A DNA stretch of 64,000 bases from a virus (lineage: Duplodnaviria; Heunggongvirae; Uroviricota; Caudoviricetes). The stretch is from the IMG/VR virus record IMGVR_UViG_2627853701_000009; one strand, given 5' to 3'. Shown in pieces: positions 24,001-30,000 of the stretch (its first letter is position 1; each line of letters starts with the position of its first letter). Position numbers: made by a program.

Positions 24001-27000
24001 CAGTTCACCCCATAAGGTGGATGAACCTGCGTATCATAACAATATTTACAGAAGATAAATCGGCGTCTGTTGTCAGAAACGGTATCCGATACCAACAATA
24101 AATGCATCCGATCGCCAGTCGCCACTACCGGAACCTTCATAAGCAAGGTCAATGGTCACGGATTCGGTCGGGTTAAACTGCACGCCAGCCCCCCACGCCA
24201 GAGACGTGTTGCTGTGGCGACCGTCATCACTTCCGGTCAGCACATCGTGCGTTTTCCCCTTGTTGTCAGTTACGCGGAGATAATCCCCGTAGAAAGTCGA
24301 CACACGGCTGTAAGCCACACCCGCCATCGCATACGCGCTGAACCATTCATTCACGCGTACAGACGGCCCCGCCATCACGCTGAACCAGCGGTTACGCACG
24401 GAATCTTCATGCCAGCGGGTATCGCTGTAGCGCGTTTTTTGCTCATCCTCAGCATTGGCATAACTGAAGGACGTAATCAGCCCCAGCGCGTCCATAAACT
24501 CATAACGGTATTTCACGTTAATCCCGTTCAGATCATCACTACCGGGAACGTTCGTCGAGGCATGGAGATACCTCGCGCTCAGCGTGGACTGATGTTCTGC
24601 TGCACTCGCTGGCGTAGCAGCGGCGACCTGCCAGACTACTGCGGACAAAATAACAGCACATAATTTACGCATAATTACCTCTCGCTTTTCTGCAATAAAA
24701 AAGGCGCCATTTCTGGCGCCCGTATCTGGGTTATAAAATTCAGCTAATCGTGATGCCTGCAGTGGCTTTCTTCATCACCACAACCAGCAAATCGCTGATA
24801 CTTGCTGTGGGATACCAGTTATTTACCAGCCATGCTGACACCGAAAACTCCAGTGTCATGTGACCGTGACCGGCAGGCATATCAATAACACCACTGTAAA
24901 TCAGCGTATTATCCAGCGCGGTACGGTTATAAATTTCAGCACCGTTTTTCCGCACTATCAGACGGCATGAGGAGTAAATATCAGTATGCTCTTTCTCATG
25001 TTTAGCGCCGCTGAATGCCACCGCCGGAATAACAATCTGCCGGTCAAACGGCTGATCGTCATAAACCCTGACGGTAATGGTTCCTGATGGCCACCGCTCC
25101 GGTGCACGGGAGTCCCGGGGGAAAGCTTTGCCCACTGTTTTAACGAGATCGCCTTCAATCTGGTTCGCGGACAATTTTCCCAGAACCCGACAGTTCTCGT
25201 TAATCGTGACGTTGTTGAGCGTCCCGGAGTTCGCATTCACGTTACCGCTGATATCGGCATTTTTCGCCGTCAGCCGCCCGTCCGGTGTCAGGGAAAATGC
25301 CGGAGGATTACCGCCGCTGGTAATGGTGGGAGCCGTCAGATATTTCAGGAACACTTCATTCATAAATATCTGATCGCCCTGACCAACAAACATCGGCTTT
25401 GTGTTGCCATTCGCAGGATTAATCATCGCAATCCTGTCTGCCGCCAGCAGCACCTGACTCTGCATTCCTGCTGGCGTATTCTCAATACCGGCACCGATAC
25501 CCGCAATATAAAGGCGTCCGTCCTGCATCTGCTGCAGTTTCACGGCCCACATGCTGTTCAGGTTATTATTTGTATCAACCTGAACTTTCTGTATCTGCTG
25601 GATTGCCGCACTCTGATTTTCCAGTTTTTTATTGACGGTCTGCGTGATTTCATTGCTGACATTCGTAATGGACGTCCTGATTTCAGCCAGGTCCGGCGCA
25701 AGCTGACCGTTATCAATCTGCGTCCACAGCTCCTGGGCCAGATGTGTTTTCCCGATTTCTCCTTTGAAAAAATCCAGGTAACCTTCCGCATCATCGCTCG
25801 CCCGACCGACAGCCTCCACGAATGCCGATTTGCCAACAGTATTCACACTGCGGATATAAAAATAATAATCATGGCCCGGTTTGATATTGATACTGGCAGC
25901 TATCCAGTACAGCGCCGAGCCAAGATAGCGGGCTGCGGTTTCAACCTGCCTGATATCCGCAATCCGCTTTTCCGAGAACCAGAACTCAAACTGTACCGTC
26001 GGGTCATAAACGGCAAGATGCGGCGTGGCGGTTATCTGAAAATAGCCCGGCGTCAGCTCAATCCGCGACGGTGCTGCCGGTGCGGCAATCCGGAAGGTGG
26101 TGGTGGCAGGTTCACCCTGCTGGCCATAGCTGTTTATCGCCCGCACCGTCAGGGTGTATTCCCCGAGCGGCAGGCCGCTGAAACGGTGCTCCGTGTCTGC
26201 GGTGATGGCGGTGGTCACCAGTCTGGCATCCGTTCCCTTACCACTGGTCAGGCGCAGACTGAAGCGCACGCCCTTCACCACCCGCGGCGTGTCCCATTTA
26301 GCCTGCGCCAGATACTGGCCGTCAGCTGCACTCACCTCCACCGTCAGGTGCTGTACTGCCGGTGGGATGACGCTGTTCAGGGAACCTGACTGCGGCTCAA
26401 AGCGGGCACCGTTATCCACGATGGCTTCTTTTTCCGGTACGTGCTGCACCGCCGTGATGGCAAAGGTGCCGTCCGTGTTTTCCCGGACGGAGACACAGCG
26501 GAACAGGCGACGGCGCAGTGACGGCAGGGAGAGTCCCCAGACACCGTATGTCTCCACACCATCAGGCAGGGTACTGACCTGTATCCGGTCCGGCGCGGGG
26601 TGTGCGGTGATGTCCACACTCACCGGCTTACCGCTGCCGTTAATCAGGTTCACCGTGGCGGCACCGGTCTCCGGCAGTGTCACAATGGCATACAGCGCCC
26701 ACTTGTCCACATCCGCCGCCCCCAGGCGTTTTCCCATTCCGTAGCGCGGGTGGGTCAGCATGTCCCACAGGCACCAGGCAGGGTTGTTGCTGTATGCCGG
26801 TTTCAGGCTGCCGTCCCAGATGCCGCTGTACGTGCGTTTTTCCGGGTCATAGTTTGACGGCACCTGGATGATGCGACCGCGGATATGGTAGTTCACCGTC
26901 ATCTGCTGACCGCCAAACTGCTCCGCATCCACCTGCAGCCCCACAATGGCCGTGTTCGGGTAGCACTGTTTCACATCGATGATTTCGGTGTATGACGACC

Positions 27001-30000
27001 ACAGCGTTCTGTTCTGCAGCTGGTCCGTGGTGCTGTCCGCCGTCTCCCTGACCATCCGGATGTTAAAGGGCCGGGGCGGCAGATTATCCAGAATCACCGA
27101 CGCCAGGAACTGCGAGGTGGTCTTGCCGTTAATGGTGACATCCTTTTCCGTCACCCAGTTACCGTTACGCTGCAACTGAATCAGCAGTCGGACAGAAGAG
27201 TGATTACGGTCGCCCTTTGAGGTGGTCTCCAACAGTGACTGCACCCCGAAGGTGACCCGCAGGCGGTCAATGTTCGCGGACGTAATGGTGCGCGTCACCG
27301 GCTTTGCCTTCGTCACTTCCACGCCCAGTGCGGTTTCAGCTCCGGAGGACTCAAAGCCTTCCGGTGGTGTCTGCTCCTGCTCCCCGGCACGCCAGACCGC
27401 AGTCACACCGTGTATCACGGGATTACCGTCCGTGTCCGTCAGCGGGGTTTTGTTCACCAGAATACTCTGCAGCCCCTTCACCGGACCTTCAATCGGCCCT
27501 TCACCAATGGCGTCAATCACGCTCATCATCTGCGTGGACTTAAGATTGTCCTTTGCCTCTACCGGCGTGTGCCCCTTGCCGCCCCCTTTACCCACTCTGT
27601 CCCCCTCTCCTGTCTGATGTCTGAATCTGTTTATGCCAGAAAACAACAGGCACCCCGGAGGGTGCCTGTGTCATGACGGAATAAAATTTCTGAAACTCTT
27701 CACATTTCCGGCAATTGCCTGTAGCCGCAATAATGACGCTGCATTACTTTTTTGATGCCTGAAAAATAACTCCATAACGTTAATCTTCATCGTTCTCTCC
27801 CGCAGCTCCGCTAACTCTGCGGGATTTTTTTATTTTCATCCCCGCCCGATAACCACCACTTTCCCGTCTCCGCCCTCATCACGGGTGCTGATGTCCTGGG
27901 ATATCCGTCGTGAACCAACCAGCATTTCACCATAAGGCACCGGCATCGGGTTCCCCTGGGCAATCATGTTATCCAGTGACGAAAAATACGTGTTCTGTTT
28001 ACCGTTATCCGTTGCGCGGTAATCCGGTGTTTTTGCCTTCGGTGCCAGCATCTGGGCCACACCGCCCAGTATCATGCTGGCCCCCAGTGAAAACAGCATC
28101 GTGGTGGCAGAAAAACCACCGGCTGCCAGGGCTGAACCCCATAACGCCATTGATGCCCCGGCCGTGAAGAAAGAGCCCACGATGGCTGCCGCCCCCAGCA
28201 CAATCTGCAGTCCGCCCTTTCCGGCCCCGGCCAGTCGCGGCACAATATGGATGACCGCCCCCTCACCCAGAGGTTCGTGAAGACGGGCGTACACCGCCTC
28301 CGGTGCCGTGTCATCACCGGCAATACGTATCTGGTACCAGCCTTCGTTCATCTGACGGCGGAATCCCGGCACCTGTAACGACAGCGCCCGGATGGCTTCC
28401 GCTGCCGTGTTCACATACAGGCTGAGGCGGCGGCCAAATCGTTGCAAATCCCCGTGAAGGCAGATGCGTGCCAGTGGCGGTGACGCCAGACAGAATGCGT
28501 TCGTCGTTGCCATTTTTCGGAATACCTCTCCCGTTTACTCAGTTGTTCAGGCAGATGGTGAAGCAGTTCACCGTTGCCGCAGTATATGGCGGCATGATTG
28601 GCCACCGATGCGCCAAAGCAGCACAGCAGGATATCGCCCGCCTGTGCAGAGGACAGGGGCACCCGGTAAAAACCAGTCGCCGCCATATTGTCCAGGTAAA
28701 GGTTCTGACCGTTGCGCCACCAGTCATCCTCACGCACAAAATCCGGCAGCGTTATCCCCGCCAGATGGTATGCATCCCGGAACAGGGTGTAACAGTCCGT
28801 CACCCCGTGCTCAAAACGACGCCCGGTCAGGTGCGGCACACAGCGGAATTTGTGAATTTCCCCCCGGCAGACCAGCCACCAGGGCAGGGCACTCTTTATC
28901 TGCAGCCGCCGGTCGGCCTCGCTCAGCCAGGGCAGACCACCAGGGTGGCTGTGAACCAGCGCCACAATCTCCCCCTGCATCTCTGCCTGCAGCCAGTCTT
29001 CCGGCGCAATACGAAAATACGCCTCCGGCTCTGCGGAGATATTCACGCAGGGCTGGTACCGTTCGCCCTCCGGGGTGCCTATCACGAAGCCGCACTACTC
29101 CGCAGGCGCACACCGCCGGGCATGCACCAGAATCGCTGATTCAGTCTGTGTCATAAAACAGGATTTACTGCGAAAGTTTATTGATGGAAAGGAAACCGCC
29201 AAAATTAGCCACCATGCCGCGCATCTCACACCCGCGCATGCATTTACTGCATCTGTCCTTCCGGATATCCGTGGTGGGGTTGTCGAACTCATCCGCCACT
29301 GCCGGACCGTTATACCCGCATTCATCGCCCCGGTAATCCCACATACAGGTGTTCGCCAGCATGATGCGACCGGGAAACAGCGCCCCGTCCGTCTCCGTCG
29401 GTGTCGCCAGCACAAACGAGGCCGTCATGGCCGTCAGCGATGACATCTGCTCCACCACCCACCGGTCCGTCAGCTCCTGCTCAGGGTCTGCCTCAGGATT
29501 GCCTGCCACAAAATTCACCGCATCCAGAAAACGGGCATACACCCGGCGGCGGACCACCGTGGCCCCCACCAGGCTCTGCAGGTCCTCCGCCATCCCGGTG
29601 ACCAGACCAAACAGATTCGACACCGTCAGCGACGGTCTGGCACTGCTGCCCTTCCCGTTCATCTCAAAGCCACTGCCGTCAATCGGGTATGCCTGATATT
29701 GCCGCCCCTGCCAGGTAACCGCCTCCCCTTTTTCATTCAGCTCATTGCAGAAAAAATACCGCTCACCGCCCTGCGCCGTCAGGTCGATTTCCCAGAGTAC
29801 CACCCGCGGTGACTGCTCTGATTTAACCGACTCGTTCAGACTTTCTTCGTGAATATCCTGCATCAGTTCACCACCTGCTTAAACTCCGCGCTGAACTCAA
29901 CGCGCAACATCCCGACCCGCGCAGACCACCCGGCACAGGTCACCTTTATCTGCCGGTATGCATAGGGTGGCTTCCACAAAAATGCCTTCCAGCCTCCGTG

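Follow-up and report, generated by a model that had tools for sequence, protein, structure and literature searches.

The tail-tip protein of phage lambda, gpJ, initiates tail assembly and is acted on by the products of genes I, L, K, H and M. Published structural work on lambda describes a last tail ring made of HDI of gpL and the hub domains of gpJ, and a tail tube that is closed by HDII/HDIII of gpJ; it places FNIII-A (residues 72-215) within the HDII-insertion, HDIII as an insertion in HDIV, and a beta-sandwich (483-569) between strands beta24 (477-482) and beta25 (570-578) of HDIV (PMC10721106, PMC11101478). Among prophages, Sp9 of strain Sakai has been documented as defective yet excisable and as packaged despite its head-gene defects, presumably with proteins from other resident prophages, and was scored '+' for host specificity (PMC2669165). 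Tandem prophages at ompW have been reported for Escherichia coli O157:H7 EC4115, which like TW14359 is a clade 8 strain of the 2006 spinach outbreak (PMC11688487). The DNA analysed here, the 64,000 nucleotides of IMG/VR record IMGVR_UViG_2627853701_000009 (the window), carries two genes of the lambda J type, a full-length copy (J1) and a copy with an internal deletion (J2). We consider J2 to be a loss-of-function allele of the tail-tip gene in a decayed Sp9-like prophage, with a probability of roughly 0.87. Only the ompW tandem prophages of EC4115 are described in the literature found, in which we encountered no explicit account of the J2 deletion.

An in-frame deletion in J2

The two J genes and the parts of them that matter for the comparison are as follows.

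24740-27595, minus strand: J2, internally deleted tail-tip (host specificity) gene J, 951 codons with a GTG start (open reading frame (ORF) and translation)
26683/26684, minus strand: deletion junction, ...GCC ATT / GTG ACA... (Ala303-Ile304 / Val-Thr), from alignments
26684-27595, minus strand: retained N-terminal part, 304 codons, HDII-insertion with FNIII-A (96.7% identity to J1; PF24801)
24740-26683, minus strand: retained C-terminal part, equivalent to gpJ 511 to end (alignment to J1 and Pfam domains)
4588-8064, minus strand: J1, full-length J paralogue of 1158 aa, the reference copy (translation; colinear with lambda gpJ in 8IYK)
6535-7152, minus strand: segment of J1 without counterpart in J2, 618 bp, codons 305-510, Phage-tail_3 hub core (alignments; PF13550 at J1 330-498)

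ORF calls put both J genes on the minus strand. The J2 frame is open over 24740-27646, with the annotated GTG start at 27595, the stop at 24740 and a product of 951 aa. That of J1 is open over 4588-8142, the start matching that of J2 lies at 8064, and the gene is the counterpart of EC4115 gpJ WP_000514959.1. Plus-strand ORFs inside J2, such as 26154-26744, which crosses the junction, were taken as antisense artefacts of a G+C-rich gene; J1 has such ORFs too.

Aligned by BLASTN and MAFFT, the gene pair forms two colinear blocks separated by one large gap; the deletion call is a deterministic alignment gap with no statistical signal involved. Codons 1-304 of J2 (27595-26684) pair with codons 1-304 of J1 at 96.7% identity, and codon 305 onward (26683 downward) pairs with J1 codon 511 onward. 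The block absent from J2 is 618 bp (206 codons) long and corresponds to J1 codons 305-510 (window 6535-7152); the missing residues are 305-510 in J1 and in lambda gpJ numbering alike. The reading frame is kept across the junction and stays open for all 951 codons, confirming the in-frame internal deletion proposed in an earlier note on this sequence. That note gave its size as 621 bp, or about 207 codons, which holds for the net length difference between the genes: 618 bp are missing at the junction, and 3 bp come from a separate one-codon indel downstream of it, in a patch of the FNIII-1 region that has 13 residues in J2 and 14 in J1. Its placement of the junction near 26685 was close, the exact position being 26683/26684.

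Microhomology at the junction amounts to 1 nt, a G, and the junction position is ambiguous by that single base. The same G is base 41 of an 80-nt junction probe and is common to both flanks, full-length alleles matching the probe at 1-41 or 41-80. No direct repeat of at least 8 nt was found at the end points and, with microhomology of only 1 nt, a repeat-mediated deletion was ruled out. A weak 12-nt inverted repeat (83%) near the end points (6533-6544 / 7128-7139) is one of 19 such pairs and at chance level. Directly beside the junction, J2 is about 97% identical to J1 on one side and 96.5% on the other, which rules out a mosaic recombination breakpoint at this position. The retained C-terminal part as a whole is mosaic and about 90% identical to J1; its lower average identity is due to mosaic patches further downstream. 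The lesion in J2 is a simple non-homologous deletion that is in frame by chance.

The size and the direction of the change are both fixed by outside sequences. In J1, residues 1-835 can be aligned gap-free with lambda gpJ 1-836 (PDB 8IYK), bearing out a deletion relative to lambda J as well as to J1, and F2-pyocin and other solved J-like proteins also align colinearly through the deleted region. A 100-aa J2 peptide across the junction is matched at 99-100% by phage BP-4795 and many Shiga toxin (Stx)-converting phages, and the closest full-length alleles in this group are 100% identical over the 100 aa. All phage matches to the peptide are split into two pieces that span 918 nt, that is, 300 + 618, which confirms a deletion of 618 bp. 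The reverse event, an insertion in the first copy with the short form ancestral, was the alternative named in the earlier note and can for practical purposes be dismissed: there is no gap against lambda gpJ (1132 aa) over residues 305-510, J of Sakai Sp9 is 3477 bp long, all top phage matches contain the 618 bp, and in most E. coli genomes just one half of the junction probe is matched. Segment 305-510 is carried by lambda gpJ and by every lambdoid phage J examined. J2 carries a deletion, and J1 carries no insertion.

Distribution of the deleted allele

The 80-nt junction probe was found in 63 of 5,426 complete E. coli genomes and in none of 50,697 phage records. Carriers include EC4115, TW14359, SS17 and JEONG-1266, and the junction-positive genomes among the matches listed are all O157:H7 or unserotyped E. 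coli of similar size, resembling EC4115 and TW14359. The J2 protein is identical to WP_000514948.1 (951 aa), labelled "host specificity protein J" in RefSeq, and its coding sequence differs from that of EC4115 by two bases, both synonymous. The allele is already sequenced and annotated in a subset of O157:H7 genomes. The deletion is confined to part of O157:H7, since the Sp9 J of Sakai is full-length and was scored as intact for host specificity.

O157 genomes hold many near-identical J copies that are hard to assemble, and the window has single-base indels relative to EC4115; a collapse between paralogous J copies during assembly, or a sequencing error, might be suspected on these grounds. 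Such an artefact is ruled out by the identical junction in 63 independently assembled complete genomes, produced in different years by different laboratories; the deletion is a genuine, inherited one. Identity is also similar on the two sides of the junction (97% and 96.5%), no collapse-prone repeat is present at the end points, and we give an artefact almost no probability.

In a collection of 5.8 billion proteins searched with the N-terminal 421 aa of J2, one cluster has the junction (P0001, a partial protein with 230 member sequences). Many further J proteins of E. coli, each shortened internally and in frame by an independent deletion of its own, came up in the same search (P0018, P0026, P0072, P0075, P0078, P0084, P0092, P0100 and P0111). 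Prophages recurrently decay by internal deletion of J. The alleles of P0084, P0092 and P0100 have a common left end point (...ITCNAYL, at about residue 329) and different right end points; this common end point could be a deletion hot spot in J.

Domains lost and retained

The earlier note had placed the missing segment in the central region of the tail-tip protein, and the Pfam matches agree, identifying it as the hub region. PF13550 (Phage-tail_3), which matches J1 at residues 330-498 (E=1.1e-38), has no match in J2, where it is lost in its entirety. FNIII-A_GpJ, Ig_J, Ig_J_second, Phage_Tail_Tip and Ig_GpJ_C are all present in J2. PF24801 (FNIII-A) matches residues 86-207 (E=1.8e-40), and PF24421, PF24489, PF09327 and PF12421 each match with E<1e-30, so that the FNIII/Ig pair, the central fibre and the receptor-binding domain are kept. 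The retained C-terminal part begins with what is left of the beta-sandwich insert, its distal portion, and continues through the linker, FNIII-1 and FNIII-2 to the central fibre and the receptor-binding domain. Set against the features that define a TipJ/gpJ protein, J2 has FNIII-A, the distal domains and the synteny, and lacks the hub core (PF13550; HDII/HDIII/HDIV). Many columns of this lost core are invariant among homologues from E. coli and Salmonella.

On the residue limits given in the structural papers cited above, the deleted block is the hub core through beta24 together with the first 28 residues of the 483-569 beta-sandwich. Because its 3' end, at residue 510, lies inside that sandwich, the deletion ends within a domain and not at a boundary.

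A single non-homologous deletion with 1 nt of microhomology took out J codons 305-510 in frame, and its proposed consequence is modelled on the published lambda structure. The block removed would hold the hub core, which extends the tail tube below the gpM ring and seals the tip, and the deletion would also break the beta-sandwich inserted in HDIV. The J2 product would keep the N-terminus that contacts gpI and gpL and the whole distal fibre, yet should fail to form the trimeric hub from which assembly starts. As gpJ initiates lambda tail assembly, a J without a hub should yield no tails. The prophage would probably be unable to make its own tail tip, and would depend on J of other resident prophages or on recombination. 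A loss of function, which the earlier note had named as probable along with an altered product, is a sensible reading of the hub-region loss and is well supported, its functional step being drawn by analogy with lambda.

Some points weigh against this reading. The J2 frame is open for 951 codons and both SNPs specific to the window are synonymous, which also fits a recent neutral in-frame deletion; residual function is neither supported nor excluded by it. AlphaFold2 models of J1 1-620 and J2 1-414, built from alignments of about 20 sequences, have a mean predicted local distance difference test score (pLDDT) of 40.3 and 41.4, respectively, and at a mean of about 40 give no direct demonstration of hub misfolding; they are too poor for fold searches or contact analysis. 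Their confident parts are only FNIII-A and the beta-sandwich (about 491-560, with strands at 493-499 and 504-507). The pLDDT of the sandwich remnant falls in J2 from about 65-87 to about 50-57, which in models of this quality is suggestive only. Moreover, the exact residue limits of HDII and HDIII are unstated in the structural text used, and the assignment of the deleted block to them is partly inference.

It may be asked whether the short J is instead a functional variant, in which the 206 residues are dispensable decoration and the 951-aa protein still builds a working tail tip. Such a variant would explain why the frame is preserved, why the distal fibre and receptor-binding domains are all intact and why the allele persists in 63 genomes. 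However, what has been lost is the conserved PF13550 hub core with its many invariant columns, the deletion ends within the 483-569 beta-sandwich, and all solved J-like proteins (lambda, F2-pyocin and others) are colinear through the region. The junction occurs in no phage record, and a nonsense mutation arose afterwards in gene K of the module. A functional short J is highly unlikely on this evidence.

A second idea is that the truncated J has been retained because it interferes, co-assembling with the J of co-resident lambdoid prophages, including Stx phages, and cutting their infectivity. The trimerising fibre and the gpI/gpL-contacting N-terminus are kept, which is compatible with mixed trimers; the J2 flanks are 99-100% identical in protein to Stx-phage J, and up to 18 places per O157 genome match the J junction probe. 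Nevertheless, the idea is speculation, an in-frame outcome is expected for one-third of random deletions, and J deletions of this kind that end at unrelated positions are frequent, a sign of neutral decay. Retention for interference thus seems very unlikely. A more specific version, in which the J remnant is expressed in clade 8 O157:H7 as a poison subunit that lowers the infectious yield of co-resident lambdoid prophages, Stx phages among them, is hardly probable; its support is limited to the retained trimerising domains. The J2 deletion, as a loss of function, is ordinary decay of a defective Sp9-like prophage.

Tail-tip neighbours and the order of events

Three further tail genes bear on the history of the module.

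28411-29154, minus strand: K2, gene K of tail-tip assembly (C40 peptidase family), codon 20 changed to amber (translation; 'internal stop' in EC4115)
8879-9622: K1, intact K paralogue (translation)
27836-28414, minus strand: I2, tail assembly protein I, apparently intact (EC4115 annotation via 99.945% identity)

EC4115 annotation and the window ORFs give J2 the lambda-type order M-L-K-I-J-lom-stf, with L-K upstream of I2 and lom/stf downstream. The amber codon in K2 is a TCG>TAG change at codon 20 (window 29096, the stop codon occupying 29095-29097). The exact 80-mer that contains it is found in 29 complete genomes, fewer than the 63 that have the J junction, and in strain ERL03-1416 the deleted J is accompanied by an intact K. 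From these observations it follows that J was lost first: the J deletion is the older lesion, and the K amber arose later in a sublineage. This order is consistent with a tail-tip module no longer under selection and with stepwise decay after the loss of J, and the prophage is probably still decaying.

State of the prophage and structure of the window

Window 15551-58898 corresponds to EC4115 NC_011353.1 1,685,551-1,728,901 (99.945% identity, 43 kb). It is a lambdoid prophage with the effector cargo of the Sp9 type, nleA, nleH1-2 and nleF, which lies downstream of the tail fibre genes in the gene order of Sakai Sp9. The window stops before attL, and the ompW location is taken from EC4115 (PMC11688487) and from the truncated ompW in the Sakai and EC4115 loci.

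The earlier note described the prophage as otherwise complete, and this part of its account does not stand: in addition to the J deletion and the K amber, there is a frameshift in the endolysin gene, the orthologous EC4115 prophage is annotated with further pseudogenes, and the Sp9 counterpart is defective (PMC2669165).

46055-46587, minus strand: endolysin (lysozyme) gene, frameshift near 46414 relative to EC4115, one base in a C5/C6 run

The frameshift ends the endolysin product after about 66 aa; it may reflect either a genuine mutation or a sequencing error in the homopolymer. Indels of one base against EC4115 also occur at 18256, 47283, 48047 and 58207; the last appears to leave an open 183-codon frame (57743-58294) for a YdaT-family gene that is frameshifted in EC4115.

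The other side of the window, 1-15556, corresponds to EC4115 1,782,262-1,766,706, the tail end of the second lambdoid prophage of the ompW tandem. J1 and K1 sit in this tail-only remnant, 19.5 kb from J2 and in direct orientation. Compared with EC4115, about 37.8 kb are missing between the two tandem prophages, and the flanks overlap by 6 bp at 15551-15556; this junction is in no complete RefSeq E. coli genome. One end of the gap lies within the ISEc8 transposase gene of the Sp9-like cargo region, the other within a tail gene that precedes gpU in the second prophage. The missing stretch comprises most of ISEc8, espO1-2, nleG and espM1, as well as the internal ompW' att site and the genes from integrase to head of the second prophage.

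The two tail modules (2205-14894 and 22279-34426) are direct repeats with 7.7 kb in common at 97.9% identity, and in long stretches (V, G/T and part of H) their identity reaches 100%. As such, they are a substrate for deletion of nleA/nleH1-2/nleF or for gene conversion that repairs J and K. By analogy with the complementation between prophages shown in Sakai (PMC2669165), J1 and K1 could supply their functions in trans, and recombination between the modules could bring back the genes, though the effector genes between them would be lost.

Between nleH1-2 and nleA lie part of a tail-fibre C-terminus (18180-18345) and a decayed integrase (18593-19333), which look like relics of an older tandem prophage in the cargo region. 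SNPs relative to EC4115 cluster in the 18180-19333 region and in the tail-fibre genes at 22355-23491, which suggests gene conversion among paralogous tail-fibre copies.

The J2 allele has little bearing beyond bookkeeping, and none on open questions unless the remnant interferes with other resident phages. It is a PCR-testable marker of the EC4115/TW14359-type Sp9-like prophage, with a product 618 bp shorter, and it shows a J without a hub going under the usual RefSeq label "host specificity protein J". The J deletion (63 genomes) and the K amber (29 genomes) are nested and illustrate, on a small scale, how a prophage decays stepwise.

Comparison with known systems

Lambda gpJ (8IYK, 8IYL, 8K35 and 8XCG) belongs to the same family as J2, with the same L-K-I-J-lom-stf gene order and the same series of domains. 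J2 holds all of these domains except the hub core, lacking PF13550 (the HDII/HDIII/HDIV core) and the first 28 residues of the beta-sandwich. In addition, its distal fibre and receptor-binding region is of the O157 prophage type, whereas that of lambda binds LamB.

The closest known form is WP_000514948.1 of EC4115, TW14359, ERL03-1416 and others, which is the same protein with the same junction in the same prophage. The strain of the window and EC4115 are two synonymous bases apart in J2 and differ in the roughly 37.8 kb between the tandem prophages, which are missing in the former. The other deleted J alleles of E. coli (the set P0018-P0111) resemble J2 in having lost internal codons of J in frame and in belonging to chromosomal prophages; they have end points of their own, none has the J2 junction, and most lose far more, from the hub through the fibre.

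For the orthologous full-length J, a best hit in O157 strain 3384 was rejected, as it belongs to a different prophage next to btsS, and Sakai Sp9 was used by its coordinates (NC_002695.2 1,770,000-1,819,000). Sp9 has the same ompW position and the same nleA/nleH1-2/nleF cargo as the prophage described here. The Sakai and EC4115 types have a common early region and effector cargo and differ in their head and tail modules, the gene set and layout of Sp9 departing from the lambda-like order of the EC4115 type. Sp9 carries a full-length 3477-bp J (ECs_1806) and a head module of another kind; its tail-tip lesion is the loss of most of L/K/I, that of the EC4115 type the J deletion. Between the Sakai and EC4115 lineages, the structural module has been exchanged.

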